A stretch of 64,000 bases of DNA from Escherichia phage ERS-1, in sequence record PP337211. One strand, 5' to 3'. The translations under genes and the position numbers were made by a program. The notes under the pieces were generated by a model. The model ran no database searches, had not been told where the DNA came from, and was given only the letters and a program-made list of their open reading frames with translations. This document shows, one piece after another, positions 1 through 61,355 of the stretch. How positions within the stretch are numbered: the first letter of the stretch is position 1; each line of letters opens with the position of its first letter.

Positions 1-1850
1 GGCACCGGGATGGCCCTTTGAGGGCGTCCCGGTTGGAGTACCCGGTGGTGATCTGGGTGATCACCGCCTTTGGCTTGTCTTTGCACCTCCGTCCGGTGGC
101 CGGTCGATGCGGTCGGCTTGCCGGCTCCTCCGCCGGGCGTCCGCTTCGGCTCGCCGCCGTCATCCTTCACCCGAGGATGCCCACCGCTTCCCGCCAGCGG
201 AAGGTCGTGCAGCCCTTCGCCCCGCCTTCCCGGCGCCGCTGTCTCGAAGTCCTCCCGCTGATGTCGGAGCGCCGCTCGCTCGCCGCGGAATCGACCCGCT
301 GGGCGGCGACGGTCGGGCGGCGACGTGTTCCTGGACGGTGACGCGGGAGCGCCTTGCCGCGGACCCGACGCGGTCCGCAGTCCTCCCTCCCCCGCGCCGC
401 GGGCCGCTGAACTCGATTGCGGTGCGGTCGAAGCTGTAGGCGAGTCGCTTCGGTCCCGGAGCTGACGTTGTCGGCCCAGGCTGACGGTCCCGGTCGGGGC
501 GATGGAAGTGAGGTGGGAGTTGCGGATGCCGTATTTGGCGATGGCGTCCTGCGTCCTCGCGGAGGGTCTTGATGAACTGGCCCTGAAGGTACTTGTCCTT
601 GTCGAACTTCGGGAAGGAGCCCTTGACCTTGGCGATGTGGGCGCTGGCCGTAGGGCTGCGCCTGCGTGTTGGTACCCTTGCCTCGAAGGCGAGGAAGGCG
701 GGCGAACCGTACGATGGCCTGGGCTTCGGCAGCGTTGGCCAGGCCGGTGATCCCGAGGCCCTTGCGGCGCTTGTCCTTGGCTTCCTGCTTCTGCGCGGCG
801 GTAGATCGCGCGATCGTACCGTTGTGCCATTGCGTGGACCTTCCTGCGGGATGTCCTCGCGGAACTGGTCCCGTCGAAGGCGTAGTGGCCCGCCCCGTCC
901 TCTAAGATGTACTTTACCTGTTGAAGGAGCCGGTGGTGCCGTAGGGCGGTAGGGTTGTCGTCCGTGGGGTTCGTGGCGGCGATGGTCTTGGGTTGGGCGT
1001 CGTTTGCGGTTGATCGCGTCGATGAACTTACGTCCCCGGCTCTGCCGGGTTGCCGGCTCGTGGCGATTGCGTCCTGGCGCCCGGGCGTCCGCTTCGCGGT
1101 AGGTCCGGCCCTCGAAGGTGAGGGGAACGGCTCGCCGGAGGCGACGCCGGCGCTGTCGGTGATGGCGACGGAGACGTTGAAGCCTGTTGCTTCTGGTCCG
1201 CTGAAGGGGATGATGGCCGCCGCTTCTCGGGGCTCCCTCCGGGAGTCGGTCCTCGAGGTCCGAGCGGCTGAACGTCCTTCCCGGGTCGCTTGGCGTGACG
1301 AACTCCTCGATGTCGGGATGGTCCGCGCATCACCCCCCCCGGGCTCCGCGGCGATGGCCGGCAGGAGGCGACGCACTGGGATCGCGTCGAAGATGTGCAT
1401 GAAGCTGATGGGGCCGGAGGAGTGGGACTGGAGCTTGCGGATCAGGTCGCCGCGAGGACGGAGGGTGCTGAAGTCAGGCCGATCCCGCCGCCCTTCCCGG
1501 TTGTGGCCTGCGGCTTCCGCGGCCCGGATTGACGGAGCCTTCGCCGTCCGCTTGAAGCTGTCGTTGATCGTCCCGGAGACGTAGCCTGTCCGTATGGCGT
1601 GACCTGGCGAGTGGAGCCCGTCGCGGACCGGATGCGGCCCGCCGGGAGGAAGTGGTACGCCTGCGAGGGCGTCCCGGAAGTCCGCGAAGTGCTGGTCATT
1701 GTCCTTCAGGGCCGCGGCGATCCGGTTCGTGGCCTCGCGGAAGGACTCGCCGCTGCCGCGGTACTTCTGGGCGTGTAGTTCTGTGAGTAGGGTACTTGAG
1801 GACCTGTCGGTGAGTCTCCTCGAAGGGTTGAGGGCTTTCTATCGTGTTGT
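1..1850 (-). CDS. Ribonucleotide reductase catalytic (alpha) subunit, copy 1; C-terminal end runs off the window start; frame broken by indels
   Basis: Reverse-complement translation gives RNR hallmarks spread over different frames: KYGIRNSHLTSIAPTGTV (~490-550), GFNVSVAITD (~1150-1180), HPDIEEFVHAK (~1300-1320), GKGGGIG and SSGPISFMHIFDAI (~1380-1500); GC3 is high in each motif frame. Confidence 0.8.
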
Positions 1851-1859
1851 TGCTCCTGT

Positions 1860-3026
1860 TCTTGGGCTAGGCGGTGAACGAGGTCGATGCGTTCCGCGGC
1901 CCGGGTAATGGCGGTGTACAACCCTTTCCTTCCGGCTCCTTCCCGTACCCCGTCCGGGGTGGCAGGACGTTGTTCCTTTGGGAGCCCTGCGACTTGTGGA
2001 CGGTGAGCGCACCTGCCCTGTCGAACTCCTCCGCGCCTTCCGCTCCCAGACTTCGGCTTGTTGCCGTGGAAGTAGTGGGGGTGGGCGCTGACTTCGACCT
2101 TCGCGCCGTCCTCGCCTTCGATGTCCTTGATGGAGTCGCTGTTGAAGATCGTGTCACGGCGGACCTTCCGGCTGGCCGTCGAGCAGGCCCGCCCTTCGTG
2201 GTCGTGAGGGGCCTTTGCCGTCGCCTTCCTGGGTGGGCGCGTCCGCCCGAGGAGTTCCCGGGACGTCGTCGCTCGTGATTCTCGTGGCGTTCCTGCCGGG
2301 TCAGGAGCTGGTCGGTGGACAGTACCATGTCCCGGAGTTCTTCGCGTGGTGGCGGCCATAGGAATCACGCGGCTGGCACCGTAGTCGCCGGGGGCGGAGC
2401 ACGCGGCCCTCGCGGACCTCCTTGGAGGTCCGGTCATCGGGTTGTCCTGGGCCTGGCGGTGAATCTCCGCGAGGACGTCGGGCTTGTCTTGAAGCAAGGG
2501 CGCTGCCGGGCGGGAGCTGTCCGGGATCGCCCGGGTGAGGACCGGTGCCGAAGTGAGGCCCTCCCCCCCGCCTGCCCGGACGGCGGAAGAATTCGCTTGC
2601 CGAGCGCGGCCCTCCAACCTGGGCGACTCCGCGTTGAGCTGGAAGGTCGGGCGGGCGAGGTTGATCTGCTCCGCCTTGATCGCCGGATCGACTTCTCCGG
2701 TCAGGGTTTCCGGGACGGGCTTGCGAGTGAGTAGCCGCGCCCGCTCCGCTTGGAGTTCCCTGGCGCTGCTGCGACTTGTCCTTGGGCGTGTAGATGAAGC
2801 TGCGAATGGTAATTCTCCGTTGGTCGCCCCGGACTTCGTGAGGACGTGAGCGGCCTTGCCGGTGTAGGCGGCGAAGGTGCCGGGACCTTTGACGGTCGCG
2901 GCGAGGTGTTTGGCCGGGTGGCCTGCCGGTTCCGGCGTACCCGGCGAGCTGGAAGGCAGGGCTTGTCCCGGGTCTTGACGTTGCCTGTCCTGGTTGGCGC
3001 GGTCTGCTGTTGGCGTACTCCGCGAT
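1860..3026 (-). CDS. RecD/Dda-like SF1B DNA helicase, copy 1; frame broken; start codon reads ATC where copy 2 has ATG
   Basis: Walker A AFQLAGYAGTG (~2930-2960), motif Ia FAAYTGKAAHVLTKSG, motif V TVHKSQGS (~1985-2010), motif VI LYTAITRAAERIDLV (~1885-1920), each in a different frame; RBS GGAGAA at 3032-3037 (rc). Confidence 0.8.
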
Positions 3027-3051
3027 GACCGTTCTCCGTTTCTGATAAGAA

Positions 3052-3072
3052 GGGGGGCCCTTGAAGGCCCCT
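3052..3072 (-). terminator. GC-rich hairpin between upstream gene and helicase RBS (terminator-like, no clear U-tract)
   Basis: Inverted repeat ggggggccc-ttgaa-ggcccc immediately upstream (on the minus strand) of the helicase RBS; conserved in copy 2. Confidence 0.35.
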
Positions 3073-3074
3073 GA

Positions 3075-3800
3075 AGGCACGCCGAGGGGGCGGGCCGTCC
3101 GGGCTGGTCCTCCCGGGTATCGGGTTGGCTGCCGCCGCCTGCGCCTGGGCTTCTCGTCGCGGCAGCCGGAGCTGGCGACGGGCGGCGCGGGCCTTGCCCT
3201 GCTGATCGTCGATTCGATGTCGGCGGACTGGAACAGCGGGTCATCGGGCAGGAGGCGAGCCGTGGGCGTTCTCTCGCCGTCGAAGGCGATGGTGTCCTGT
3301 TGAAGAAGGGCCCTTGTCGTCTGTCGGCTCGAGGCGGTAGCGGTGGGCGGCTGCGGAGCCGGGATGCGGCGACCGTCCCGGAATCCTGGATGGTCTTGGC
3401 CTTGTACCCTCTGCCCTTGTACTTCTTGATCTTCGTGGAGCCGAAGGCCCGACCGCTTCCCAGGCGTTGCCGCTGTTGCGCGTGCCGGCCCCGGTGGTGT
3501 AAGGTTCCGATTGGCTCGTTGCCGTCCGGGGGTGCTGCAGCTGCCGTGCTCGAGGACGCGGCCTTGGCGGTTCGCCGGGTCGCCGTCGACTCTGGGATGC
3601 CCGTTGCACCGCCGCCGCATCGCGGGGCTTCCACCACCGCACGTGCTGGGTGGTCGCCGGGACGAAGGCAATGCCCTTCTTGCCGTCCCAGACTTCGCCG
3701 GTCACCGGTGTTCGTGTACCCCGCCTGGCGGTGCTTGTCGTTCTCCTGGAGCTGCGGGCTGAGGGCCTGAAGAATCTGGAGGAACGGGATGCTGTAAGTT
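3075..3800 (-). CDS. Hypothetical protein upstream of helicase, copy 1; frame broken
   Basis: Protein-like peptides with high GC3 in rc frames: YSIPFLQILQALSPQLQENDKHRQAGYTNTGD, GEVWDGKKGIAFVPATTQHVRWWKPRD, STKIKKYKGRGYKAKTIQDSG, LLQQDTIAFDGE...DDPLFQSADIESTISRA. No family assigned. Confidence 0.35.
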
Positions 3801-4384
3801 GTCGCTGGTCCGGCTTCTCGAAACCCGCGCCCAGCCGTGCTGTGCCCTGGCCTCGCCGCGGCGGTGTTGTCTTTGTCGCCAGCGGTGGTCTTGCTATCGG
3901 TCTTGGCCCGGCGGCGCTGGCTCCTTCGGTTCGATGTGAGCGGGGCCGATTGGGCCCCCGGCTCGAATAGCCCTGCCGTCTGCCGGTGTACCCGCCATCG
4001 CCGCGGGGCGGTTGTAGGAAGGCCCGGGCCCGCCTCCTTCTGGGTCGTCACTTGGACGCTGACCACGGACCCCGAAAGGTTCTGGGACTTCCTGCCTTCG
4101 CTGTGGCCTCGCCGGCACGAAAGTGGTAGGGTTGAAGGATGGACGCTGGCGTTTGTCGTCGCCCGAACTCGTCCGCGAGACGCTGGCGGTTCGCTGCCTT
4201 CCCGCCTCGCCCTTGCCAAGGCGACTGGCGACCCGGCGCTCGATCAATCGCGGGCGTGGCCGTGCTCGCTCAGCTCAGGCGAAGGCGAGCGGGGCCTTGG
4301 CCTTCGGATGCTGGCGCCATCGTCTGCGGAATCCTTGATCTTCGGCTGGCGGTGGTCTTGGAGCTGCGGTATGCCGATCTGGTC

Positions 4385-4570
4385 CTCAAGTTTGGTACCC
4401 GGCGCTCCGCGATGTCGCGGAGTTCTTCGCGGGCCTTGTTGAGCTGGGCTTCGAGGCTGCGACCTTCGACGGGCGGCCTGTTGTTTGGCCCGCTGAGCCA
4501 GTTGGCGTGGCTTGACTCCGGCGGCTCGAGGTCTGTCTGGACGCGTTTTCCTTAGGCGTGGTTCTCCGTT
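4385..4570 (-). CDS. Small coiled-coil protein, copy 1 (start codon and stop both altered relative to copy 2)
   Basis: Homologous to 62703-62887; peptide ...KVADLEAQLDKAREELRDIAER; RBS GGAGAA present, but cacgcc replaces cacATGcc. Confidence 0.3.
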
Positions 4571-4596
4571 TCTTCGGCGAGGGTATTTGTATCGCT

Positions 4597-4630
4597 GAAG
4601 AAGTATAGCCGGTTGTTGCAAGAAGTAGAG
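4597..4630 (-). promoter_or_regulatory. Sigma70-like promoter, copy of the recurring family (-10 TATACT, -35 TCTACT, 16-bp spacer)
   Basis: rc sequence CTCTACTTCTTGCAACAACCGGCTATACTTCTTCAG; gene with RBS begins ~30 nt downstream. Confidence 0.45.
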
Positions 4631-6224
4631 GCCCAGGCGTTCACCGTGACCAGCGTTGGTCCTTGCCGCTCCGCTTGGAGGGATACGTCCCTTCGGTTGG
4701 TGTCCGCGGCGATGGCGACGGCGAACCCGATTGGGACTGGATCGCCCTTTGAAGGTGGTCCCCCGGCCCCGAAGCTTCGGCCGCTTCTCTTCGGTTTGGA
4801 ATGATTCGGCTCCGGCGGAAGGGGCCGCGGTCGGGCGGCGGGGCACCGGCCTTCCAACTCCTCCGCCGGCGAGGTTGAATTGGGCTCGAACCGCTGCTGT
4901 CGCGGTCCCTGCGGTGTTGGTCGGTGGCGGCTGACGGCTGGTAGTCTTGTGGTCCTGTCTTCCAGGCGGTCGCCGGTGATCTGGCTCGTCCCCGTTGAAT
5001 TTGTTCCTCAACGTTTTCCACCTTTCCTTCCCCTCGCAGTTCTCTGCCCTTGAGGTCGATGTACCCGCCGTTGTCGGTCTGTCCGATCCGGCGGGCGCGG
5101 CTCCTCCGACCAAGGCGGTCATTGAGCTTGAAGCTGTTGGAATAATAAATGACCGTCTTGGCCGCGGTCAAGGTGTCCGTGCCCGTCGCCCCCGCCGCGG
5201 GATCGCCCTGGCCGTCGCGGGCCCGCTCCTCCGGCGGACGGCCTCCGCCCGATCACCTGCCCGTTATGGTACAGGGGCGCTCGCCCTGGAACCTGGGCCT
5301 CGGCGTCCGCCCGCTCGTTGCGTTTCCCCTGCCGTTGGCCGGACCGCGCCGACGCCGCGCTCGCGGAGGGCGTCCGGATTGCGGCGATGCCGCTTTGCAA
5401 CTGGGCCCGGTCGATGCCCTTGCGCGGACTCCTCCATCAATTAGGTGCCGGGCGACGGTTCGGCCCCGCAATTCGGGTACCTTGGGTTCCGCTTCGTCGG
5501 TCGGGAGGTAGCTGTGATCTGCTGGAGGCGGAGGAGCCGGGTGATGGCGAGGGCGGCGATGACCGGGGCGGGGCCCTCCGCGCCCGTTGGGGGCGTCCCC
5601 GTCGGGTCGGTAGATGGAAGCGGTTGGGTTTGCCGCCGTTTGCCCGGCCCGTCGGTGCGTCTCGGCGACGGCTCGCGGCGACCGCTTCCGCGTCCCGGCT
5701 CACCCTGTTTCCCGCCCCTGTCATGTACTCGTCCGTGCTGGTGATATGCTTGCCCTGCTCCGGGGGTCCGTTTGGGAGAACTGCTCGCCGGTACTGTCGG
5801 CCGGGAGGTCTGGTGCGCCTCCCTTCGTGACCCGGGAGGAGACGGGCTGGAGTAGGGCGGTCGCGTGTCGGGCGGCGAGAGCCCTTCTGCCGTCCGTCTC
5901 CGCCTTCGTTCTTCTTGGTCTTTGGCTTGAAGGCGGTCGGGTCCTGCTCTTCCGGTCGTGAAGTGCTGTCTTGAACTCCGTGAAGGTGCCCTAGCGGTTG
6001 GGCTTCTGTAGTTGTTGTTTGTCCACCATCTCGGCTGTACAGGTGTTGAAGGGTCCCGGCTGTCGGAGTCCCGGCTGGGACCTGCCCTGAACGGCGCGTA
6101 CTTCGCGGAGCGGAGGATGGCAGCTGGTGCGCTCCGCGGTCGGGTCTTGATGCAGCGCGCCTTCCCTGACGTAATGTAGGCGGCGCTTGTCCAAGAAGTC
6201 GGTTGGCCCGCTTCCCGGAGGTGG

Positions 6225-6651
6225 TCAAGGCTTCAGGCGATGGCGGAGCCTGGTGAAGCCCTCGTGCTCGATGACGGCCTTGACCGCCTGCTCGTGCCCT
6301 TGGTGTCGGCCTTCGGGCTCTGGTAGTGGAAGGCCCGGACGTGCTTGATCGCGTTCGGGTACGTGGTCCGGAGATTCCCTCTCAACCCAGTTGCGGTGCA
6401 CGCTGTTCGGGCGACCACCTCGCTGTCGATGAGCCGCGGAGCCAGAGCCAGAGGCGGTGTCGATGGTCAGCTTGGACTTGCCGGCGCCCTGTTCCCGGAA
6501 GATCGCGCGGGCTTCTTCTTCGCGGGAGCGTGTCACTCCTCGCGCTGGCGGTTGAAGGGTTCGGCTTGAAGGGGTATTGGAGGGCGGCCTCATTTCTCGG
6601 CGATGCCCGGAAGATAGCCCAGCTGGGCGGCGAAGGCGAGCGGAGAATCAT
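6225..6651 (-). CDS. P-loop NTPase-like protein (first gene downstream of AT-rich island A); frame broken
   Basis: rc frames give EEEARAIFREQGAGKSKLTIDTASGSGS (Walker-A-like GAGKS), TTYPNAIKHVRAFHYQSPKADTKG, HEQAVKAVIEHEGFTRLRHRLKP then stop at 6225. Confidence 0.4.
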
Positions 6652-6739
6652 GTGCGCTTGGGAGGGGGGCCCAACGCTCGACTTCGTGTGCTGAAGAAGT
6701 ATGAAGTGGAGAGGCAGTGGAAGCCCTGTGGGGCTGGGG

Positions 6740-6910
6740 GTTTATATATTCTTCTTCTTCTTCTTTAACTCACTCAACTTACTTACCTTAACCCCCGCAC
6801 GGCCTCTTGGAACCTAGGCAACGGTCGCCGGTCGCCTCCCTGGGGGTCCCGGCGATTTATCGGGCGAAGTAGAACTGAACTGGAGAAGTGAAGTAACCTA
6901 AGCGAGGAGG
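6740..6910 (-). promoter_or_regulatory. AT-rich intergenic island A: TATATA box, (AAG)5 microsatellite, conserved 31-nt element, iteron-like GAGTTA repeats
   Basis: tttatata at 6741-6748; cttcttcttcttc at 6751-6763; ttaactcactcaacttacttaccttaaccccc at 6765-6796; homologous to 31420-31640. Confidence 0.5.
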
Positions 6911-6991
6911 GTCGGAGCTGTTACGGCGCTGGGCCTTCCATGGCGCTTGGGGCTCAGACCTTCGGGCGTGAAGGTAAGTATCCCAGCGTTC

Positions 6992-7342
6992 TCATTTGCG
7001 GAACCTCTCCTTGAGGCCCAGGAGGATCGGGGAGACCAGGCTGCAGAAGAAGATGCCCAGCAGTGGCACGGTTCCCCTTCCGCTCCTGTCCTCCCCGGAC
7101 TCGCGCCACTGGCGGAGGTGTTGGAAGTCCCTCTGGCGGCCAGCGGCTGCACGTGTTGGCCCGAGCTGGACTGTGTTTGCTTCACGGCTTCTGCCGCTTA
7201 CGCTGTTGGCTCCGCGCGGACGGCCCGGCTTCCGCGGCTCGCTTCGCCGCGTCCTCGCGGTAGCTTCGCCGCCCGGGTCTGTGGCCGGGCGGCGATGTCT
7301 TCGACTTGCTCCGGGCGGGGGTGTCGGTCCTGCGCGGGTCAC
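6992..7342 (-). CDS. Small membrane protein (C-terminal transmembrane helix); holin-like candidate; N-terminal extent uncertain
   Basis: rc frame ends ...GTVPLLGIFFCSLVSPILLGLKERFRK then stop at 6992 (hydrophobic helix followed by basic tail, high GC3); lies at the end of the structural block next to island A. Confidence 0.35.
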   Translation of the reverse strand: MTRAGPTPPPGASRRHRRPATDPGGEATARTRRSEPRKPGRPRGANSVSGRSREANTVQLGPTRAAAGRQRDFQHLRQWRESGEDRSGRGTVPLLGIFFCSLVSPILLGLKERFRK

Positions 7343-7949
7343 CTCGGCTGTACTCCACGGAGTCCGGGCCCCTGGGGGTTCAGATGGCCTGTCCTGTCCG
7401 CGTCCTTCCCCTGCGAGCCCGTGGACCGTGTCGGCTTGCCGGGTGGTGTCGAGTATCGGCCCCCGATCCGGAGGCGGCGCCGCCGCCGGCGGCTTCGCGG
7501 TCGTGCCGTAGCCGCGGAGGAACTTCCCGCGCCGCCGTGCCGGTAGGCGCTGTTGGCATCCTCCGGCGGAAATGGTCCTCCCCTTCTTCGGCGAAGACTT
7601 CTGCCGTCGCCGCGCTCGAATAGCGCGCGATCCGTTGGCCCGTACCCGGTTGTTCGTGCCGGTCGGGCTCGCCGGGCTAGGCCATGCTCCCCGTCCGCGG
7701 GCGAAGCCGGTTGGGCGGTCGTGGTCGCGGACTTCGCGTGGCCCTTAGAAGGCCGTCGGTCCTGGCGGAGGAAAGACTGAAATTGGTTGTAGGGCGCTGG
7801 TCCCCCAGCGCGCCGTTCCCTTGATGCCCGTTCGGGCCGTCACTGATAGCCGTTGGGACCTTCGGTACAGTTTGGGTATGTTCCCGAGTCGCTGTTCCCG
7901 GTGCGACGTGGGATCGGTAGCTGTCCTGGCCGTCGCGGACCGCCGTGAC

Positions 7950-21957: not shown

Positions 21958-22605
21958 TCAGGCGGTTTCCCGTGTCGGTCGCGGCAGGGAGGCGTGCGCC
22001 GCGCGCTCCTCCAACCCGTCCAACCGCTCGAGCCGTCCGCGCGATAGGCTACCGGGATTGGCGGCTGAACCCGTATCGCCAGGTCCGCTCTGCCCGAGGG
22101 TTCCTGGCGGGGAGCGTGCGTGAGGCCACATGCTTTTCCTGCTCGATCCGTCCGGCGAGGGTCCGGGTCGGCCGTGGTGACCTCCCGCTGCTCGACCTGC
22201 CGCGGTGCCTCCTTCGCCCCCGAAAGGGACGAAGGCGCGGGCGTCCTGGGCGAGGGCGACCAGCCGAAGGCCCTGTACACGCGAAGGCGAAGTGAATCTG
22301 GCCCTCGCCGGAATGGTTGGAAGGTGAAGCGCTGCGGGGGCGATGGCGAGGACCCCAGGCTCCCTGCCCCTCCCAGCTCTCCCGGCTGTGTGAGCCTTTC
22401 CCAGTGTCGGCCCGGGCAGTACGGCGGGTGATCTGGGCGGTGATCCCTGCGGCGCGAGGGACGCTGTCCGTTGCGCGAGGGTCACGACGCGGCCGGGGTC
22501 GAATCCGTACGGGACCACGCCTGGCGATGAAGGTACCGGCCGGTTGTTGAAGAAGGGCGCGAGGGCGCTTGTCGGTCGGAAGAAGCGGGTGACGGCGATG
22601 TTCAT
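21958..22605 (-). CDS. Hypothetical protein with clear RBS-supported start
   Basis: rc CCGGAGAACCAACG-ATG (ATG is complement of 22603-22605); N-terminus MNIAVTRFFRPTSALAPFFNNRPVPSSPGVVPYGFDPGRVVTLAQRTASLAPQG; later part low-complexity (frameshifts). Confidence 0.4.
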   Translation of the reverse strand: MNIAVTRFFRPTSALAPFFNNRPVPSSPGVVPYGFDPGRVVTLAQRTASLAPQGSPPRSPAVLPGPTLGKAHTAGRAGRGREPGVLAIAPAALHLPTIPARARFTSPSRVQGLRLVALAQDARAFVPFGGEGGTAAGRAAGGHHGRPGPSPDGSSRKSMWPHARSPPGTLGQSGPGDTGSAANPGSLSRGRLERLDGLEERAAHASLPRPTRETA

Positions 22606-24499
22606 CGTTGGTTCTCCGGTTGGTGGGGGCAGGGTAGTGGGTGGACGGCGGACGCGCCCAGGCTGAAAGGGGCCTTTCGGCTTTCCCGACGGCCCGGTCG
22701 CCGTCTGCGGCGACTTCCCCGGTAGCCGCCGAAGTCTCTGGCGGTGGTTGGCGCTCCGTTCGGCCCTCGCCGGGGTGGACCTGCTGTCCGGATCGGCTGG
22801 GCCTGCAGGAGAATTGGAGGCGCCCCGCTGATTGCCTGGTCCTGGGGGTCCTGTGCAGAGCGCGGCTCTTCCCCGCGCCCGGGCGTCCGCTCGCCGTCGG
22901 GCGAAACCCGCGCCCGGAAGGTCGGCGCCTCGCTGTCGGCGGGTTTTCCCCCGTCGGCGGTCTCGTTGTTGGCCTGGCGCGTAGGCGTTCCCCTCCCGTT
23001 CCCGGCGCGGACCTCCTCCTCGCAATTCGTCAGCGGCCTCCGCCGCCTCCGCGGTCGCGCTCCGCCTTCCCGGAGCCGTAGCCGTAGCCGTAGCCCGCGA
23101 AGGTGATCCAGTGCGACGGTGAGGTGCACGCCTGCCGTGGCCGGCTTGGAGGAGGGGAAGCCGAACACGGGGGCTTAACCTCGCCCGTCCGTTGCCCTTG
23201 ATCGGGGCGGCGGGGCCGGAGGGGCCGGAGCGGACTTGCCTCCGGCGTTGCCTCCTCCAGTTCTGGCCGTGACGTGCGCCGGTTTCTCAGGCGTCAATGG
23301 TCGAGGCGGTTGCCTTGGTGGTGCCGGATCTTCGCCGGCTGTTCTCCTTTGCAGAGTCGGTCGGGTTACTGAGCGGCCTTCGCCTCTCGCGGGCGTGGCC
23401 CGGGCGACGGCTTCCACGTCAGCGCGGGCACGCCGGCGGAGCCCTGCCCCGCTTCTCCCGGCGGCCATCGTGGGCTCTCCGTCCTTGGTCCGAGTGAGAG
23501 TGTCGTCCGCCGGGTCCAGGCCGAGGACCGCCTTCTGAGCTTGGCAATCGGTTTCCGCGGTTTGGCCCCCTTGCCGGACCGGCGGGACCGCCGGTTGCTC
23601 GTCTCCCTTTGGGTTACCCCCGGCTCGCCCGGCTTCGGCTTCGCTCCGCCGCTGAGGCGTACGCGTTGCGGTTTTGCCGCTCCCGTCCGGGCGAACGTCG
23701 CCGTGTACCGGCTGTCGGCCGTCGCTGGCAGCCTTCTCTGAGATTGCTGGCCCTTCCGGTACCTTTGCGGGGTGCCTTCCGGTAGGCCTGCCGTTGCGTC
23801 TCGAGGAAGCGGGCGTGGCGCTGACCTCCCGCCGGAGCGGCGATGGTCAAGCGGCCCTTGTCGAACGGTAGGGCTGACTGCCCGGAGCGGACCGCGGCCC
23901 GCCTGGGGGTCTGGTCAGGACGAAGGTTGTTTGGATGATGGTGGGTCCCGTACGGTTCTCCTGGGTCAGCGGCTGTTGCGTTGCGGCCAGGACCCGCGGG
24001 TCCACAGCAGCGTCGGCAGGGTATCGCTGAGGGCGTCGCCCAGGCTCCGCCGTCCGTGATCGTGCCCGGGCGCTCGATGGGGGATTCGCCCCCGGCGGCG
24101 TGGACTGGATCCTGGTCTGCCGGTTGCCGGTAGTGCGTCCGCGGCTCCCGCGATGGCTAGGGTGTTCGTGGCGCGGGACGCGGCGTTGATCCCGGTTGTG
24201 TTCGGAAGCGGTCAACGGTGCTGCGGCGACCTGTCGGCGGTGTTGTCGGTCGCGTCTCCGCACCGGTGACGCTGACATGGGCGCTCCGTCCGCGGCCTCC
24301 GCCCGGGTACCTCGTCGAAGGTCCTGCTGTTCCGTCGGCTCCGGCGGCGATTCGGTCGGTTGAATCGTTGAGCCCTGCCCTGCCGTCGCCGTCGAACTTC
24401 GCCTGGTGGTCCGCTTGGCGATGGTGTCGGAAGCGGCGACAGGTGCCGGCGCTCCGCGCCGTGCGTCAGGTCGCGGCCGGAACTTGTTCCGGTCCAGGG

Positions 24500-25300
24500 T
24501 TAGGGTAAGTGGGCGGATGGCTTCTCCTGAGCGTGTTTCGGAAGGGTGACCCGCCCTGGCGGCCCGCCCTTCGGGTATGACGGGGGCCCTCCCCCGGAGG
24601 GCGGGACCGCCTTAGCTGGCGACGCCGGCGTGGTGCCCGCCCTCCGCCGAAGGGCGCCAAGCCGGTACCACTTGACGCGCCAGATGTGCTCGTCGGAGTC
24701 CTCCACTCGCCCGTCGTCGTGGTCCTGGATGCCCGCGGCCTGGGTCGTGGTCGGGTCGGCGACGCCGTGGGTGCGCGAACCGTTGTCTGCAGTACCTGCC
24801 AAGATCGTGGTGGTGTGGCGCCGGTGCCCTTGGTCTGGTTGGTCGGGACGTAGTCGTTGCGGAAGATCGGGGTGCCGGAGTAGGCCGGACCTCCGCGCCG
24901 CTGGCTCCATGCCCGTCATGGATGGTGGCCGCGGTGCGGAGTAAGCGCTGTAGCTGTGGACGCGGTGCGGTTGGTGCGCAGCCCGCTGGCTGTCCCGTTG
25001 GCGAGGTCCTTTGCCGTGATGGCGAAGCCGACGCCGGAGCCGTTCGCGCCGGTGGTCGCTTTCTGACCCGGAGGCGGGCGGCCGGATCGTGCCCGCCAGT
25101 CTGCGTCGCCCGCGCCGGCGCCGTTGATCGGTGGTTCCTGCAACTTGCGGCCTGGCGGACTTCGCCTTGGAGGCGATCTGGACCTGCGGTTGGTCGTCGC
25201 CGTCGCCGCAGCGGTAGCCTGGATCAGGCTGCTTGGCTTCGCGGCGTCACCCATGATGGTGGTGAGGTCGGAGTTGACCTTGGTGAGGTCGCAGCGGCCT
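24500..25300 (-). CDS. Hypothetical structural-like protein(s) (capsid or tail composition); frame broken
   Basis: rc peptides TTGANGSGVGFAITAKDLANGTASGLRTN, TTILAGTADNGSRTHGVADPTTTQAAGIQDHDDGRVEDSDEHIWRVKWYR. Confidence 0.25.
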
Positions 25301-49611: not shown

Positions 49612-52574
49612 GGGCGCACGGGTTCGGACTTCGGCCCCGCTCTCCCGTCACCGTCTTGCCTCTCCGGACGGCGCGACCGCTTCGTTGCCCGTGCTCCTCC
49701 CGGCGCTGCCCTGGTCGAGGGCGTCCGCGGCCTTTGCTGTCCTCCTCGTCGGGAGAAGGCCCGGGAGGTGCCTGGTCGCCTGTCGCGGCGTTCCGCGGCC
49801 TCCGTGCCCTTCCCCAGTTCGGGTGGTTCGCTCTCGCCGGGGCCGGCAATGTCGCCTGGCGGAACGCTCCGCGCAGTCGTGCCGCTTGGACCGCCTTGAC
49901 AGGTTCGGCGACGGGTGCGGGTGGAAGGAGGCTCGACGCCGTAGCTGCGCTGGGCGATGTTGTACTGACCGTGGTGCGGGACGATGTGGTCCGGTGGACC
50001 GTCCCGGCCTCCCGGGTCGCGGCGATCCGGGCGGAGCGGCGGACGGCGCGGCGGTTGGCTCCTCCGCCTCGCGCTCCTCGTCATGAATCTTGCTTCCCTG
50101 GCTTCCCTTCGTCCGCGTCTCCTCCCTGCCGCGCCGTCGTCATTGCCTGGGCCTCGCGGGCCTCGAAGGCGGCGCGGCGGCGTTGATCCGTTTCCTTCCC
50201 CGGCCGTCTTCCCGTCGGTGGCGGCGACGTTCTCCGCTCGCCCCGGGCGGCGTCGAAGCGGAGGGGTTGGACGCTTGAAAGCCTTGTGGGCCTTGAGGTT
50301 GGGATTGCTCGCGGCGGAAGAAGGGTTGCGGAAGCCGTCGGCGTCCGGCTCGCCGGTGCCCGGCTCCTGGTCGCCTTCCTGCCGGTCCGTGGAGGCTTGA
50401 AGCGGAAGGGCTCCGCGATCCCGGCGGCGTAGGGGTCGGGCGTTCCTTCCCGGGGTGTTGGGTTGGCGGCGAGGTCCGCGAGCGGGCGACCTTGCCCAGT
50501 ACCCTCATCGGCGTGGAAGTTGGCGCTGACTTGGCGGTAGATGCCTTGTTGGCCCGAGGTCCGGCGACGTCGGCGGAGGTAGCTGAAGTGGACCGCGTTG
50601 GCCCCTGTAGGCTCCCCGGGTCCCGTCGTCGGAGCGGTTGGTGCGGTCATGTCCGGCCGACCGTCGTGATCTGGAAGATGGCCTGAAGGTTGGCAGGGGA
50701 GGTCCTTGCCTTGGCGGCCTGGTCCGCGTCCGCGCTCCTGTCCAGGACCTGGCGGTGGTCATCGCGGTTCGCCTTCGGGCGGCGATGATCTTGGGCAGTG
50801 GTCCTCGAAGAAGTGCTGGCGCCCTGCGGAAGCCGTAGGCCCCGTGGAAGGTCCTGCCGTCGTCCAGTAGCTGCGCTTGCGACCGGCGAAGCGGGGCGCG
50901 CATTCCGCGTCATTGCGTCTGCCCAGCATCCAGAGGCTTTCCATCAGGTGGAAGAAGGGGTTGGCGTCCCGTTCTGCCCGGCGCGCTCCGCCGGCGGAGG
51001 CGCCGGTGGCGACGGGTTCCGGGCGTCAAGCGGGGCCGTTGCGCGAGTCGCGGCGGACGCCCTCGAAGGACCTGTCGAGAGGGCCTCCCGGGAGGGCCTG
51101 TTGTACGTTGCGGGCTTTGATGACTTTGTCTGTTAATTTGAAGATGACGTTGCCGGTCCGGCGAAGGACGCGGAAGCGGTTTGCGGGTGGTGCCCCGTTA
51201 AGCCGGCGTTCGGTTCGCGGATCGGGGGCGATAGCCCGGGACGGCGATTTTAACCGCGAAGGGGCGGGCGAACTGCTCCGCCTCGGCCCGGTTTCATTGT
51301 TTCTGACCGTGGTGACGGAGTTCGTGACGGCCTCCGCGGAGGACTTCGCCTTGGACTTCTCCGCGTCCGCTCGTCCCGGGCCTCTTCTAGGTGTCGGTGG
51401 TGGCTGTGGGCGCTTGGCGTGGTGTACCGGCGTTGTACTCGTGGGACTTGGCGATGCGGCGGCGCTCCCCGAGGTCGCGCGTGCGAAGCGTTGGCCCTCG
51501 AACTGGACCTTGACGTCGCCGTGGTCGGCAAGAAGCCGTCCGGCGCCTGCCCTTCCCGCTTGCGGAGCGGTTCCGGGTAGATGTCGTTGTACACGGCGTC
51601 CCCAGGGTGAACTTCTCCGCCTCCCTGGGCTTTTTTCGCGGGCCTCGAAGGCGTGCTGAGGACCCCTTGCCGCTCGCGGATGTAATTGGACCCGGCACCT
51701 GCCCGAACCTGGCCTCCAGTTCGTCGATGCCGCCGGAATGGTCCGGCGGCGAGGTTTCGATCCGGCGAGGGTGGTTGCCTTGCGCCGTGGTGCTCCAGCG
51801 GGTTTCTTGCCTTCGTCGGTGGTGCGCTTGCTCGTCGAACTTGGCGTGTGTTCGATGTCCCGGGCCTCGAACCGCGGCCCCCGCGCGGGCTCCCGAGCTG
51901 CGGCGGTCCGAAGGTTTCGTCGAAGCCCCGGGCGTCCGTGTTGGCTTGGCTTCGGCTCGATCAGTTTCCGCGTTCGTCTGCTCCGGGCGGGGCTTCGCGG
52001 CGAGGTCGTGCCCTGCTGGCGGTCGAGCCCGCGGATCGCCCCGGCAGGGCGTTGGCCGGTTCCGTGACGTCCTGGGCGTCGTGGTAGCGGGTGTGGCGGA
52101 GGTCGGTCACCGTTGCCCGGACGGCCCCCGCCGACCAGCGGTGCTGCTGGAATTTGGCCCTGCGCTTTCGAGGGTCGGAACCCGCGGAACCTTGGGGCTG
52201 CACTTGGCGGGCTCCGCGTCGCGCGCCCGTTCCTCGCGGTCCTCCCGGTACGGCCCGGCAATCTCCGCGATGTAGCGGTGCTTGGTCCGCTGTACCCTCC
52301 TTGGAGGGGTCGGACTCCGCGCGGATCGTGAGGCTCCGGGCGCCGCCTTGTTGCCCGCGGCGGCGTAGTCCTCCGGCGCTTCGCCGCTTCGCGGGCTCGA
52401 GTCCTCCCCTTTGCCGGGTTCCCGGCTCCGCCTTGTCCTGGAGAGCGGAGGGTGTCGGCTGTTGATGTAGCGGGCGATGGTGAGGGCGGGTCTTGTAAGG
52501 TGCGGGTGGTCCGCGTAGGGCTTGCGGATGTTCTCCTGGTCCTGGTCGTCCCGGGTTGGCTTCGCGGCAAGATG

Positions 52575-53245
52575 TTAGGGTACTGCCGCCCTCGCGAACC
52601 GGGTCCGCGGTCCGGGGCCGGGCTTCCCGGCCTTGCGGTCGGTAGACGTCGTGCCGGGCCCTTGAAGGCGGCGATGTCGTCGACGCGTGGGTGGTCGGTT
52701 CGGGGTCCTGGTCGGGCTCTCGATGACGGCCTTGATGTCCTTCGGGGCCGTCTCCCTGTGGATGTCGCGGACCGTCTCGCCGTCCGCCGTGGCCTCTCGC
52801 CGGACCCGGGCGATGGTGCGGTGCTTGTCGGCCTCTGGTTCTCCTCGACGGGCTTCCCGCCGTCGCGCTCCTGGATGTGCTTTGGGCTTCCAGCGGCGTG
52901 TCCTGAAGGCCGGGTTGTTCCGCCGTTCGCCTTCGACCCCTGCGCGTATGTAGATGGGCACTGACACCTCGCGCCCTCCAGCCCTACCGCCTTCACGTCC
53001 GGGCCCCGCCAACCAGCTCCGCGACGGCCTTGGCCGCGGCTTGGGTCTTGATCCGGTCCGGACCGGCGGTGGTCGCTCCGGCGGCGGCGGGGGTAGTCCC
53101 CGATGATGGCGATGCCGCCCGGCGCGTCGCCGGGATCGGCTTGTGGTCCGGGACGATGACGTCGATGACGTGGCCTGCGGATCGCGGTCCTGGCTGCGGG
53201 TGTGGTCTTGCCGGAGCCGTTACTGCCCTGCGTGATGTACTTCAT
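52575..53245 (-). CDS. P-loop NTPase with Walker A in the first 15 residues (ParA- or kinase-like); frame broken
   Basis: rc GGAGAACCCAAG-ATG (ATG is complement of 53243-53245): MKYITQGSNGSGKTT...; later peptides GHVIDVIVPDHKPIPA, ADGETVRDIHRETAPKDIKAVIES. Confidence 0.35.
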
Positions 53246-53556
53246 CTTGGGTTCTCCACCGGTTGAAAACGGCGGAGCCGGAGCCCCGCCTGGTTGCTGT
53301 TGGTTGCGTGATCGGGATGATCTTGCGCTCGCCGCCGTCCTCCTCCGGCGGGTCTGGTTCCACGATCTTCTTGAAGTCGGGCGAGCGGCCTTCGCCGCTC
53401 CGGCTGGTTCCGAACCGGCGGGCTTGCCCTTCGTCCGCTGTCCGCGCGGTGGAGACCTGCCGGTGGGGCGCGTCCCTTGACCTCCTGGAAGGGCTGGCCC
53501 GTCGGTCCGGTGAAGGTTCGGCACGCGCTGGCCGTGGCCGGTCTGCGGTGATCATT

Positions 53557-53955
53557 TCACGCCTTCCAAAGCCAGTGCCGGCTCCGCCGGCTCCGGGCTT
53601 CCCGCGGCGGGTCCAGGCGTCGCGTAGGTCGGTTGCCGTGCTCGTCGCCAGTTCCGGTACCTGGCCGGTGGGCTTCGACCCGGCACGGCTCCGCGATGGT
53701 CTTTTCGGGCTCCGGCCTGGTTCTCCGCGGGCTGTCGGCCAAGGCTTTGGTACGCTCCGGTCCGAACCGCTTTGGAGGCGTTCGATCATTGCCGGGGCCC
53801 GCTGTAGCCCGCCTCCCGAATTTTCGGCGATTGTGGTCGTTGCCGACCGCGGCCTGGTGCTCCAGCGTGTGGCGGATGTCGTCGTGGGTGACGATCCCCG
53901 GGATCTGCGGATTGACCTGAATGGAGGTGTAGATGCCCTGACGGCGCTCGGCCAT
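53557..53955 (-). CDS. Hypothetical protein
   Basis: ATG is complement of 53953-53955: MAERRQGIYTSIQVNPQIPGIVTHDDIRHTLEHQAAVGNDHNRRKFG... Confidence 0.25.
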   Translation of the reverse strand: MAERRQGIYTSIQVNPQIPGIVTHDDIRHTLEHQAAVGNDHNRRKFGRRATAGPGNDRTPPKRFGPERTKALADSPRRTRPEPEKTIAEPCRVEAHRPGTGTGDEHGNRPTRRLDPPREARSRRSRHWLWKA

Positions 53956-54143
53956 TTCGTCAGATGGTCCTGAAGGCTGATGGCCCCGGCAGGCCGTGCC
54001 GTTGTGGTCGTTGCCGGTGTTCTGTGACTTCTGGGCGTAGCTGTAGGGGTTCCGCTTCGGGTGCCCATGGCCCGTGACGGTAGCCGAGACGGCTGGAAAG
54101 AAGATGGTGCCGGGCTCCCGAAGGCTTCCGCCCCCGCCGGGCG

Positions 54144-54680
54144 TTATGGGCGCCGTCCCGGTTGGGAAGGGGTCCGTGAAGCTGGAGAAGTAGCCCGCGG
54201 CGGAGGTCCGGGACTTCGAGAGGGTTTGCGGACCTGCTCGCCGGAGTTCGCCGGGACGCCGATGAGGCCGGTGCCGCGGTAGCCCCGGAACCCGCTGTCG
54301 ACGTAGCAGGCGCGTGCCGCCTGTAGCCCTGGAGGTTCGTTGATCGCCTCGCTGAAGGGGCGGGCGCGGGAGCCTCGCTCGTCGTTGCGCTTGTCCTGGT
54401 ACCTGCCCTGAAGGGGCTTGGCGTTCGGGATGCGGATGTGCGGGAGGTAGGTGACGTCGTTTGAAGCGGCAGGCCCTCCACCTCCTTCTTGTCGTCGTCC
54501 TTCGCGTCGCGGACCTTCCCCTCTGCCCTTGCCGGAACTTCGCGCGGCTGGTCCTGTGGGTTTCCTTCTCCCCCATCGGGTCCTGGAACTCCCGTTGGTT
54601 CGGTCCGGCGGGCGAAGACTTGTAAGCCTCCTGCAGCGGCTTCGCCGGTTCTTCTGTCCTTGCCGCGTGGTCGGTGCCAT
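54144..54680 (-). CDS. dUTPase / dCTP-deaminase-fold protein (tentative); frame broken near the N-terminus
   Basis: rc GAAGGAGA-ATG (ATG is complement of 54678-54680); peptide [71 protein letters not shown], resembling the RSS...(I/V)D(S/P)G(F/Y)RG core of the dUTPase superfamily. Confidence 0.35.
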
Positions 54681-54704
54681 TCTCCTTCAACTGTGAAAGT
54701 CAGC

Positions 54705-54738
54705 GCCTTACCCGGAAGAAGTAAAGCGGCGTTAATTC
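54705..54738 (-). promoter_or_regulatory. Weak member of the promoter family (-35 TTTACT intact, -10 degenerate)
   Basis: rc CGCCGCTTTACTTCTTCCGGGTAAGGCGCTGACTTTCACAG directly upstream of the RBS at 54681-54688. Confidence 0.3.
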
Positions 54739-60130: not shown

Positions 60131-60139
60131 GTTGAGGGC

Positions 60140-61306: not shown

Positions 61307-61334
61307 TGACCGTTCTCCGTTTCTGATGAAAAGA

Positions 61335-61355
61335 AGGGGGGCCCTTGAAGGCCCC
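61335..61355 (-). terminator. GC-rich hairpin upstream of helicase RBS (copy of 3052-3072)
   Basis: ggggggccc-ttgaa-ggccccc inverted repeat. Confidence 0.35.

Follow-up and report, generated by a model that had tools for sequence, protein, structure and literature searches.

The window, the whole 64,000-nucleotide stretch of DNA analyzed here, has the character of a noisy copy of a single molecule and spans a little over one genome length of a Pseudomonas Yuavirus (M6/YuA group). By alignment it is collinear with the phages PaTs-2, Churro, and Aergia, and every gene is located on the minus strand. Across the window, T in TG context is miscalled in about 80% of cases on one strand, a pattern consistent with the hypermodified thymidine of M6-like phages. 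These miscalls selectively wreck ATG, GTG, and TTG starts, TGA stops, and codons for Leu, Val, Trp, and Cys. ORF reading in the window is unreliable, and all sequence-only findings made here require correction against an intact relative.

The locus under study contains an ORF at 6992..7342 (minus strand, 116 aa as read) with the C-terminal end TVPLLGIFFCSLVSPILLGLKERFRK, followed by a TGA stop at 6994-6992. The original prediction of a small ORF that ends in a transmembrane (TM) helix and a stop was confirmed, and the helix is conserved in the orthologs. The hydrophobic peptide (6992-7072) forms the C-terminal end of the YuA gp01 ortholog, and the gene is already known as the hypothetical or "membrane" protein gp01 of YuA/M6-type Yuaviruses. 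Its orthologs are YuA gp01, M6 ORF040, MP1412_01, PaTs2_80, and Aergia_0031; the name gp01 is used herein for the window gene as well. The DNA can be aligned to PaTs-2 and Churro across the entire gene. The true start lies at about 7322, where the ATG is destroyed, and the raw ORF enters the true frame at ...QRDFQHL. Compared with the 345-nt gene of PaTs-2, the window copy has 30 substitutions, 19 deletions, and 5 insertions. These 54 base differences, with 24 indel positions and the lost start, fit the read-error pattern of the whole window rather than true divergence. The raw ORF is in the true frame over only its last 48 or so codons because read errors removed the start codon and shifted the remainder. 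Thus, the ORF continuity upstream is apparent only, the C-terminal part, from ...QRDFQHL onward, being the only one in the correct frame. The profile phrog_6420 is matched by the raw ORF with E 9.5e-13 (residues 70-116) and by the intact ortholog with E 2.4e-39. Coordinates of all features are given in Table 1.

TABLE 1. Features of the gp01 locus and of the lysis cassette in the window.
Feature	Position	Strand	Evidence and remarks
Gene for 114-aa tail-anchored membrane protein (gp01)	~6992..7322	-	DNA alignment to PaTs-2 and Churro; tblastn with Aergia_0031, E 8e-20; phrog_6420; indel-corrupted, start codon lost
Short periplasmic tail	6995..7012	-	KERFRK in window, KEWFHK/KEWFQK in orthologs; stop TGA 6994-6992 next
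Hydrophobic core of C-terminal TM helix, VPLLGIFFCSLVSPILLGL	7013..7069	-	KD19 2.25; VALLGIFFSGLVSLILLGL in intact orthologs
Juxtamembrane motif QRDFQHLRQWRESGED, cytoplasmic	7088..7135	-	Family consensus MQ[RK]DFQHLR.WR; earliest true-frame part of the gene in the raw window
Candidate sigma-70-like promoter element directly upstream of gp01 gene	7345..7376	-	Consensus scan and mapping; TTGCCA-17 nt-TA[A/G]AAT in intact Yuaviruses
Intergenic island A, between gp01 gene and SNF2 helicase gene	6581..6991	-	Alignment
DUF2793 tail-fibre-like protein (Aergia_0030), upstream neighbour	7380..7853	-	PF10983, E 5e-21; tail-fibre PHROGs
i-spanin, Rz-like	22602..23168	-	PF03245, E 1.7e-10 (above Pfam cut-off); phrog_1327, E 9e-40
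o-spanin embedded in i-spanin gene	~22677-22870	-	66 aa; lipobox VISGC; Pro-rich lipoprotein ORF
Annotated holin, 111 aa, three hydrophobic segments	22297..22605	-	phrog_8226 "holin", E 5e-54
Endolysin, 241 aa, N-terminal signal/SAR-like hydrophobic segment	21632..22311	-	phrog_669 "endolysin", E 1.6e-29

The gp01 gene follows the tail hub gene (9913-7853) and the DUF2793 fibre-like gene (7853-7380). It precedes the 410-bp island A and a gene for SNF2 helicase (6580-4950), and it is indeed, as had been claimed, the last gene of the structural block before the island. In YuA, the counterpart of island A contains a promoter (record positions 489-568, about 6835-6915 of the window) for which experiments showed "medium activity (1000 MU)" (YuA GenBank annotation). 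A candidate sigma-70-like element is located 36 nt before the gp01 start codon and is identical in seven Yuaviruses. Scans of YuA and Aergia for the sigma-70 consensus gave 10/12 matches, with 1-2 sites found vs. 0.1 expected. In the window itself, this element is unreadable because of the TG-context errors. No peptidoglycan hydrolase was found between 7 and 9 kb, in agreement with the earlier observation that no endolysin was recognized nearby; this stretch is occupied by the fibre and hub genes. For Lydia gp70-75, peptidoglycan-degrading activity was likewise not found (PMC11946847).

The window sequence QRDFQHLRQWRESGEDRSGRGTVPLLGIFFCSLVSPILLGLKERFRK comprises the MQ[RK]DFQHLR.WR motif, a K/R cluster, and then the C-terminal TM helix. 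The best 19-residue Kyte-Doolittle window of the raw ORF, VPLLGIFFCSLVSPILLGL, scores 2.25, a value that 2000 shuffles of the ORF never attained. In intact orthologs, the corresponding site reads VALLGIFFSGLVSLILLGL, with a score of 2.56. Pro and Cys in the window core are probably read errors at CTG and TCC/GGT codons. Over the in-frame part, the window and the orthologs share QRDFQHLRQWRESGED...LLGIFF..LV..ILLGLKE.F.K. Among the motif columns, Q68, R75, and R78 are invariant, and D70, L74, and W77 are nearly so (alignments A2 and A3). The AF2 model contains three helices, the last of which runs continuously from residue 64 to 113 through the TM domain (TMD), with pLDDT 89-93 across residues 81-110.

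The same architecture is found throughout the family. All 162 analyzed members have a hydrophobic core, which starts within the last 35 residues in 99% of them, while a hydrophobic N-terminal segment was found in only one. A single TMD is located at the extreme C-terminus, after an N-domain of 55-90 aa that is cytoplasmic by topology call. The 15 residues before the core contain on average 4.5 Lys and Arg, vs. 1.6 after it, and a median of 7 residues follows the 19-aa core. By the positive-inside rule, gp01 is predicted to have an N-in topology. The N-terminal part is all-helical and cytoplasmic, with only a few residues in the periplasm. Thus, the gp01 gene is real, and its product is a conserved phage protein anchored in the inner membrane by its terminal helix.

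The helix is not, as had been stated, the only clear one outside the tape measure protein. In Aergia, 13 proteins have a KD19 of at least 1.6, and 11 of them are proteins other than gp01 and the tape measure. These include the holin, the i-spanin, the signal/SAR segment of the endolysin, and two late proteins of 43 and 77 aa. In the window, the other hydrophobic helices are hidden because the frames are broken.

The gp01 family is large, with 1309 clusters (50% identity) at E <= 1e-3 and 407 at E <= 1e-10; 129 close homologs were found. All 40 sampled relatives match the phrog_6420 profile. Related loci were located with a degenerate DNA pattern of the juxtamembrane motif, and this cytoplasmic motif is strongly conserved across hosts of 37-67% GC. 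In seven Yuaviruses, mean dN is 0.030 and mean dS is 0.27, which demonstrates purifying selection on gp01 (dN/dS about 0.1).

Searches of Pfam, NCBIfam, PDB sequences, and Foldseek gave no relative of known function. The Pfam scan gave only a sub-threshold Phasin match, originating from the Ala-rich helix, and the NCBIfam scan gave only noise. The best match in the PDB profile search had E 0.62, and Foldseek comparison of the AF2 model with BFVD and PDB gave nothing below E 1, including no structural match to a tail protein. Of 40 diverse family members, 10 gave weak sub-threshold matches to the uncharacterized family DUF6127 (PF19622), the best with E 1.3e-5; for the protein P0209, a precomputed match is rated "faint." These matches do not reach the gathering threshold, and the window ORF and the PaTs-2 and Aergia proteins have none at E <= 0.1-1. 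No mention of DUF6127 was found in the literature searched. Judging by these profile matches, the YuA gp01/phrog_6420 family may be distantly related to DUF6127.

A full lysis cassette was found elsewhere in the window, at about 23168-21632 (minus strand), including a Rz-like i-spanin, an embedded o-spanin, a 3-TMD holin, and an endolysin. The endolysin gene is located 14.3 kb from the gp01 gene. The KD19 of the phrog_8226 holin, 2.96, is the maximum of the proteome. Sequence comparison alone gave no PDB relative for the Aergia endolysin; its assignment is based on PHROGs and on PMC11946847, where similarity to lytic transglycosylases is reported. Phage Lydia carries the same three-gene lysis module (PMC11946847). 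For this window, gp01 matters little, the Yuavirus lysis genes being already annotated at another place. A role of gp01 as a substitute for a missing o-spanin was rejected, given the 66-aa lipoprotein ORF embedded in the i-spanin gene. A role as a spanin of any type (i-, o-, or u-spanin) was rejected as well, the TMD being C-terminal and an i-/o-spanin pair being already present at 22602-23168.

The gene had also been proposed as a candidate holin, that is, a protein accumulating in the inner membrane and forming a lethal lesion that admits the endolysin. Holins are very diverse, and single-TMD holins such as T4 T and T7 gp17.5 exist. The small size of gp01, its one true TMD (KD19 2.25-2.56), its place in the late block, and the adjacency of an endolysin gene in some relatives agree with such a function. 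We nevertheless consider it very improbable, and the proposal is not upheld. Every cassette examined has a separate holin candidate, which in the Yuaviruses is the 3-TMD phrog_8226 protein, located with the endolysin 14 kb away; in DLP4, PaMx28, and the metagenomic loci, the candidates belong to a 2-TMD family. The architecture is reversed, being N-in with the charged domain N-terminal and nearly nothing in the periplasm. The strong conservation of the cytoplasmic motif across hosts of such different GC content is unusual for holins, and no holin family was matched by gp01 in the Pfam, PHROGs, and NCBIfam scans.

In relatives, homologs of gp01 were found inside lysis modules. In DLP4, the gene order is holin, endolysin, i-spanin, o-spanin, and the gp01 homolog, which has a 4-nt overlap with the o-spanin stop and is followed by a terminator. 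In PaMx28, AXL1, and Mallos, the homolog is the last gene of the same five-gene lysis layout. Yuavirus gp01 has 40-45% identity to the fifth lysis gene of DLP4 and PaMx28 over 74-78 residues (E 1e-23). The homolog is described as the fifth lysis-module gene in the papers on DLP4 and AXL1, where its role in lysis is stated to be unknown (PMC6469090, PMC9206674). At least eight metagenomic lineages (L008, L009, L018, L019, L025, L038, L044, and L056) show this order as well, with PHROG matches for endolysin and spanin. In three further lineages, the homolog is located beside non-homologous lysis genes: an SLT-type endolysin (L034), a lambda-R-like endolysin with another holin (L035), or a CHAP/PG_binding hydrolase with a lipoprotein (L006). 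In L081, an M15 peptidase gene, a 63-aa gene, and the gp01 homolog are linked to a Yuavirus-type helicase block.

A lysis-type gene was found within five genes of the homolog in only 11 of the 32 viral-contig clusters. Moreover, the holins, spanins, and M15 endolysins of the cassettes beside gp01 homologs are mostly homologous to one another, and there are therefore few independent association events. Thus, the idea of many independent associations of gp01 with lysis cassettes is only partly true. In a large clade, the homolog is flanked by the gene for the major capsid protein on one side and that for an A1-like phosphoesterase on the other, and in phage 7-7-1 it follows the small terminase gene. 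In the window, the five-gene module (2-TMD holin, M15 endolysin, i-spanin, o-spanin, and single-TMD gene) is absent upstream of gp01, and the tail hub and fibre genes are found instead. The positional argument, according to which the gene lies where lysis cassettes usually do, therefore holds for the sister genera, in which the homolog is last in the lysis module; in the Yuavirus, the cassette is elsewhere. A lysis association is likewise backed by the fifth gene of the sister phages, the link being one of synteny only.

The location at the end of the tail block could also indicate a virion (baseplate or tail) component. Lydia gp75 is labelled "tail protein" and the vB_Pa-PAC9 protein "structural protein," and Lydia gp70-gp75 were grouped as possible baseplate proteins (PMC11946847). 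We find this scarcely credible for a protein whose C-terminal TMD is strongly hydrophobic and whose charges show the positive-inside pattern; in other phages, its homologs are encoded either within the lysis module or behind the capsid gene. In PaMx28, the label of virion structural protein is given to the neighbours gp34, gp35, and gp38 but not to gp40; in PaTs-2 and PAE1, the fibre is labelled structural and the gp01 ortholog hypothetical. The Foldseek search of BFVD and PDB also speaks against this function.

The neighbouring genes could suggest that gp01 is a membrane tether or partner of DNA-handling or assembly proteins, namely, the A1-like metallophosphoesterase, the SNF2 helicase, or the small terminase and capsid proteins. 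The gene immediately downstream encodes an A1-like "DNA transfer protein" in 12 of the 32 viral clusters (phrog_1745, E 1.6e-165), in one of them with two short ORFs between. In L006, the A1-like gene follows with an 11-nt overlap, PhiJL001 gp04-gp05 are arranged alike, and the gene that follows in RDJL Phi 1 carries the annotation "DNA repair exonuclease." SNF2 helicase follows gp01 in the Yuavirus-like lineages. However, the neighbours of gp01 vary between clades. A1-like proteins were found in 1132 phage records, mostly of T5-like, Vibrio, and Flavobacterium phages, with no Yuavirus or Bradleyvirinae in the genus tally or among the A1-like records listed. The gp01-carrying Yuavirus and Bradleyvirinae phages apparently have no A1-like proteins, and there is therefore no co-occurrence. 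A function as a tether is accordingly judged distinctly unlikely, and an obligate partnership of gp01 with the A1-like "DNA transfer" protein was rejected for lack of co-occurrence in cultured phages.

The promoter-like element raises another alternative. Under its own host-type promoter, gp01 could be a membrane protein expressed independently of the late genes and protecting the infected cell, either by superinfection exclusion or by a block of the type IV pilus or of DNA entry. The gene, which would then resemble the cor/llp-type genes beside receptor-binding genes in other siphoviruses, immediately follows a fibre-like gene, a near-consensus TTGCCA-17-TA[A/G]AAT precedes it, and it was kept when the lysis cassette moved. 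Use of type IV pili by YuA (PMC11461919) agrees with this function. On the other hand, the promoter is only a consensus match, and the one promoter listed in the promoter-trap annotation of YuA is that downstream of gp01. The seven Yuaviruses resemble one another too closely for conservation of the element to carry weight. The exclusion proteins known from such a position are lipoproteins of the outer membrane rather than tail-anchored proteins of the inner membrane. The homologs of DLP4 and PaMx28 overlap the stop of the upstream lysis gene and leave no room for a promoter; therefore, they are late lysis-operon genes. In sum, we regard exclusion as unlikely.

Our preferred reading, offered tentatively and somewhat short of probable, is that gp01 may be a host-lysis accessory protein, not a hole-former, that tunes the membrane step. 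In the ancestral lineage, gp01 would have been the last gene of the lysis module, after the 2-TMD holin, the endolysin, and the i- and o-spanins. The protein would act late in infection at the cytoplasmic face of the membrane, where its juxtamembrane helix and glycine-containing TMD could adjust the timing or the manner of the membrane step of lysis, through either holin triggering or the release of a membrane-held endolysin. The retention of gp01 next to holins that are unrelated speaks against a role as a holin-specific antiholin. In Yuaviruses, the lysis module would then have been exchanged and moved beside the head genes, with gp01 staying at the end of the tail block; there it may have gained or kept its own sigma-70-like promoter and would work without a specific neighbour. 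The 14-kb distance, the different cassette type, and the host-type promoter-like element fit early or independent expression equally well as a lysis role.

A broader proposal, which we consider possible but doubtful, is that the gp01 family might form an unrecognized, widespread class of lysis accessory proteins, tail-anchored and cytoplasm-facing, that time lysis or release the endolysin whatever the type of holin or endolysin. Such independence would explain why gp01 was kept after the swap and move of the Yuavirus cassette. This family of more than 1300 clusters has an invariant cytoplasmic motif and is repeatedly the last gene of the lysis module; if the proposal is true, it would be a fifth common player in Gram-negative lysis.

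Comparison with known systems shows both likenesses and differences. The canonical holin classes are represented by lambda S105 (class I), S21 (class II), and T4 T (class III). Like them, gp01 is a small phage-encoded inner-membrane protein of the late period; unlike them, it has its one TMD at the very C-terminus, with a cytoplasmic N-domain and nearly nothing in the periplasm. Mu gp25, the "releasin" (DUF2730), is reportedly a membrane-tethered cytoplasmic protein that is encoded with lysis genes and helps in the release of the membrane-held (SAR) endolysin. A signal/SAR-like hydrophobic segment is likewise found at the start of the Yuavirus endolysin, and the likeness is a functional analogy only: the TMD is N-terminal in Mu gp25 and C-terminal in gp01, no DUF2730 match was found among 40 gp01 family members at E <= 0.1, and, unlike the Mu protein, gp01 relatives also accompany soluble M15 endolysins without a hydrophobic segment. 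A homologous counterpart is the fifth lysis-module gene of Bradleyvirinae and Pamexvirus (DLP4 BIT20_015, AXL1 gp52, PaMx28 gp40, PaMx74, and Mallos BL60050). Its products are like gp01, with the same motif and C-terminal TMD, but do not have the Ala-rich N-terminal 25-35 residues of the Yuavirus protein. This gene is the last of the late block, before the terminator, and is translationally coupled to the spanin genes, whereas the lysis genes of Yuaviruses are located 14 kb off and belong to other families.

The ORF under study occupies the position of a 114-aa gene found in the phages PaTs-2 (PaTs2_80), Churro (Churro_080), and Aergia (Aergia_0031), where it is flanked by a DUF2793 fibre-like gene on one side and by the SNF2 helicase gene on the other. 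Since the records of YuA, LKO4, MP1412, and PSP2 begin just upstream of this gene, it is gp01 of these phages, the name used here. As the original prediction stated, the ORF ends with a hydrophobic peptide, TVPLLGIFFCSLVSPILLGLKERFRK, followed by TGA; the intact ortholog proteins terminate in GTVALLGIFFSGLVSLILLGLKEWFHK. Base-by-base alignment of the 345-nt gene revealed 30 substitutions, 19 deletions, and 5 insertions in the window copy. The raw ORF is in the true frame only from ...QRDFQHL onward, so the C-terminal part of the predicted protein stands, while the upstream ORF is broken by indels and by loss of the ATG (true start near 7322). The hydrophobic core has a 19-residue Kyte-Doolittle score of 2.25, a value that none of 2000 shuffles attained; the score of the orthologs is 2.56. 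It is not the only such helix outside the tape-measure protein, as had been proposed: Aergia has 13 proteins scoring at least 1.6, among which are the holin, the i-spanin, and the endolysin (at its N-terminus).

Positions of the features discussed in the text
Feature	Position	Strand	Remarks
gp01 ORF	6992..7342	-	
Sigma-70-like element	window ~7345-7376; YuA 4-32; Aergia 25193-25221	-	garbled in window
Island A (between gp01 and SNF2 helicase)	6581-6991		
i-spanin	~23168-22602	-	PF03245 (Rz, above Pfam cut-off), phrog_1327
Embedded o-spanin ORF, 66 aa	~22677-22870	-	inside i-spanin gene 22602-23168, another frame
Holin	22605-22297	-	phrog_8226 'holin'
Endolysin	22311-21632	-	phrog_669 'endolysin'
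Collinear match	window 1-31177; Aergia 32941-22		
Collinear match	window 31199-63956; Aergia 61685-27026		
5.7-kb region present twice	4-5668; 58296-64000		helicase to ribonucleotide reductase region
Thymidine-hypermodification cluster, expected	window ~51600-56000; Aergia 35.4-41.2 kb	-	by collinearity
PLP enzyme			Aergia_0044, annotated 'threonine dehydratase'
Radical-SAM			Aergia_0045, annotated 'photolyase'
dUMP hydroxymethylase			Aergia_0049, annotated 'thymidylate synthase'

The 5-kb stretch around gp01 matched 83 phage records at ~79% identity with ~230 bases missing, the best matches being Pseudomonas phages of the genus Yuavirus (PaTs-2, Churro, Aergia, and M6 relatives). The window is collinear with Aergia throughout, in reverse orientation and with wrapping; thus, it spans one genome and a little beyond, and every gene is on the minus strand. 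Nearly all its long ORFs are on this strand, T is far more abundant than A on the plus strand, G+C content is 68%, and the phase of the codon-position G+C signal switches at intervals of a few hundred bases. Ordinary divergence does not account for the differences from the relatives. Both copies of the 5.7-kb region could be compared: they are only 84.6% identical and differ by 436 gap positions, so the window is not a polished assembly; some errors are common to both copies and hence systematic, and some are not. In comparison with Aergia, 75-84% of 3600 T residues before G on the coding strand were altered or missing, versus 10-42% for other T contexts (10-19% for TC) and only 21-28% for CA, the complementary context on the opposite strand. 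T makes up 10.4% of coding-strand bases in the window versus 15.9% in Aergia. Together, the strand- and context-specific errors and the discordant copies make the window resemble one noisy single-molecule read, and its ORFs are therefore not reliable at face value. Miscalls at TG preferentially destroy ATG, GTG, and TTG starts, TGA stops, and Leu, Val, Trp, and Cys codons.

In phage M6, ~30% of thymidines are replaced by 5-(2-aminoethyl)deoxyuridine (5-NedU) (PMC5889632), and modification in TG or TC contexts was inferred from restriction-resistance data (PMC6449724). In the window, TG accounts for 36% of coding-strand T, and TG is the failing context, TC (10-19% error) not. This pattern is compatible with TG-specific T hypermodification in a single-strand, nanopore-type read. 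A hypermodification cluster like that of M6-like phages is expected in the window (see table).

The intact protein matched phrog_6420, a family of unknown function, with an E-value of 2.4e-39, and the raw window ORF with 9.5e-13. The homologs recovered by a word-indexed search number 129; all are ~100-120 aa long, and almost none carries a name. When 1.84 billion cluster representatives were searched with a profile, 1309 reached E <= 1e-3 and 407 reached E <= 1e-10, with lengths of 58-147 aa among the 150 matches listed. For seven Yuaviruses, dN averages 0.030 and dS 0.27. The gene is thus real, under purifying selection, and a member of a large family; its ortholog had been deposited before, uncharacterised, and it is nothing new in kind. 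The Pfam search of gp01 gave no significant match, and searches of the family with Pfam, NCBIfam, PDB profiles, and Foldseek yielded no relative with a known function; weak DUF6127 matches (Pfam) were seen in 10 of 40 members.

Family alignments contain a variable, Ala-rich N-terminus, the consensus V..TL..LG[VI]D...P.EMQ[RK]DFQHLR.WR.....[KR].K[GS], a hydrophobic helix in which glycines are conserved, and a short tail. The hydrophobic core was present in all 162 sampled members, starting no more than 35 residues from the C-terminus in 99% of them and followed by a median of 7 residues. Lys and Arg average 4.5 in the 15 residues before the core versus 1.6 after it, with an excess before the core in every member. 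By the positive-inside rule, this places the N-terminal part in the cytoplasm, and the proteins are predicted to be tail-anchored in the inner membrane. AlphaFold2 with an alignment gave helices at 5-35, 39-56, and 64-113 (mean pLDDT 78), with confidence peaking over the juxtamembrane and membrane parts.

A holin had been proposed for gp01, with no endolysin recognised nearby. An endolysin is indeed absent there, the 7-9 kb stretch suggested for the search consisting of fibre and hub genes. In the Aergia annotation, i-spanin, holin, and endolysin occupy the interval between capsid and head-tail adaptor genes. The spanin pair is completed by a lipoprotein ORF without annotation in Aergia, MSALLLICGLVISGCASKSPLVVRPDPVRLSPPPAELMEPEQ..., with the lipobox VISGC and a Pro-rich body, embedded in the i-spanin gene. 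Phage Lydia has the same spanin-holin-endolysin module, and peptidoglycan-degrading activity was not found for its tail-end gene products gp70-gp75 (PMC11946847). The canonical set is thus complete elsewhere in the window and does not require gp01, which is very unlikely to be a true holin. The label of virion protein, given in Lydia and PAC9, is in our view extremely improbable.

For the context survey, viral contigs were scanned with a degenerate DNA version of the motif, yielding 63 loci in 32 clusters (37-67% G+C); six divergent members and cultured phages (tblastn, 120 records) were added. The latter included Yuavirus, Bordetella Vojvodinavirus, Xanthomonas and Stenotrophomonas Bradleyvirinae, PaMx28/74, Roseobacter RDJL phages, Agrobacterium 7-7-1/Milano, and others. 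Three arrangements were seen repeatedly: (i) tail genes, gp01 homolog, and SNF2 helicase in Yuavirus-like genomes; (ii) scaffold, major capsid protein, ~85-aa gene, gp01 homolog, and a T5 A1-like metallophosphoesterase (phrog_1745, 'DNA transfer protein'); and (iii) a lysis module with the gp01 homolog as last gene.

In DLP4, arrangement (iii) comprises tail fibre, two-TMD holin, endolysin, i-spanin, o-spanin, gp01 homolog, and terminator, with a 4-nt overlap between the homolog and the o-spanin stop; the order is the same in PaMx28 and Mallos. It was also found in metagenomic loci (L008, L009, L018, L019, L025, L038, L044, and L056), with endolysins and Rz-like spanins confirmed by PHROGs. 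These cassettes are mutually homologous and therefore represent a single old module rather than many events. Elsewhere, the homolog adjoins lysis genes that are unrelated to these: in L034 an SLT-type endolysin, in L035 a lambda-R-like endolysin together with a different holin, and in L006 a CHAP/PG_binding hydrolase together with a lipoprotein. In L081, an M15 peptidase, a 63-aa gene, and the homolog are joined to a helicase/Pam3_gp32/DUF7307/Pam3_Gp34/PIF1 block, which is the block following gp01 in Yuavirus. A lysis-type gene lies within five genes of the homolog in 11 of the 32 viral clusters. Yuavirus gp01 is 40-45% identical to the DLP4 and PaMx28 proteins (E 1e-23). The positional link to lysis is seen in these relatives, where the homolog is the last module gene; in Yuavirus, the cassette is elsewhere.

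We tentatively favour gp01 as a lysis accessory: it would act on the cytoplasmic side of the membrane, would descend from a five-gene lysis module, and would have been kept by Yuavirus once that module was exchanged and moved. A more far-reaching and less likely reading would make the whole family a general fifth lysis protein.

In many relatives, an A1-like protein of ~550 aa, carrying metallophosphoesterase motifs and, at its N-terminus, an HTH, is encoded directly after the gp01 homolog, in some with overlap (L017, L025, L032, L044, L006, and others; PhiJL001 gp04-gp05; RDJL Phi 1 gp03-gp04). That gp01 tethers neighbouring DNA-handling proteins is nevertheless quite improbable, a reading weakened because A1-like proteins and the gp01 family apparently do not co-occur in cultured phages.

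Between the fibre gene stop and the gp01 start, TTGCCA-17 nt-TA[A/G]AAT matches the sigma-70 consensus at 10 of 12 positions; 1-2 such sites were found versus 0.1 expected by chance. The element is identical in seven Yuaviruses, although these are themselves 94-98% identical overall. In the YuA record, an experimentally active promoter is annotated only downstream of gp01, in island A (record 489-568). That gp01 is an independently expressed protective membrane protein, acting for example in superinfection exclusion, is unlikely. The gp01 5' leader, 3' of the element, contains the hairpin CCAAGA-TCA-TCTTGG, annotated as a terminator in LKO4. Island A, especially 6745-6800, is conserved and lower in G+C, with (GAA)6 and AAGT/AAGTT repeats adjoining a G+C-rich hairpin, CCCAGC-CCC-GCTGGG. 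A 70-aa Pro/Arg/Ser-rich ORF annotated across it in Aergia (Aergia_0032) and some other records appears non-coding.

Membership of the family in the lysis module has already been published, although no function was given: the papers on DLP4 and AXL1 describe the gp01 homolog as the fifth gene of the module, with its role given as unknown (PMC6469090; PMC9206674). A NeuB_NnaB/SpsE domain was reported for its product in DLP4 (PMC6469090); this domain was absent in scans of 40 family members other than the AXL1 and DLP4 proteins. The A1-like genes beside gp01 homologs sit in late or structural blocks, in contrast to the pre-early position of A1 in T5. The AXL1 paper placed the single TMD of the product at the N-terminus (PMC9206674), whereas across the family the TMD is C-terminal in 99% of members.
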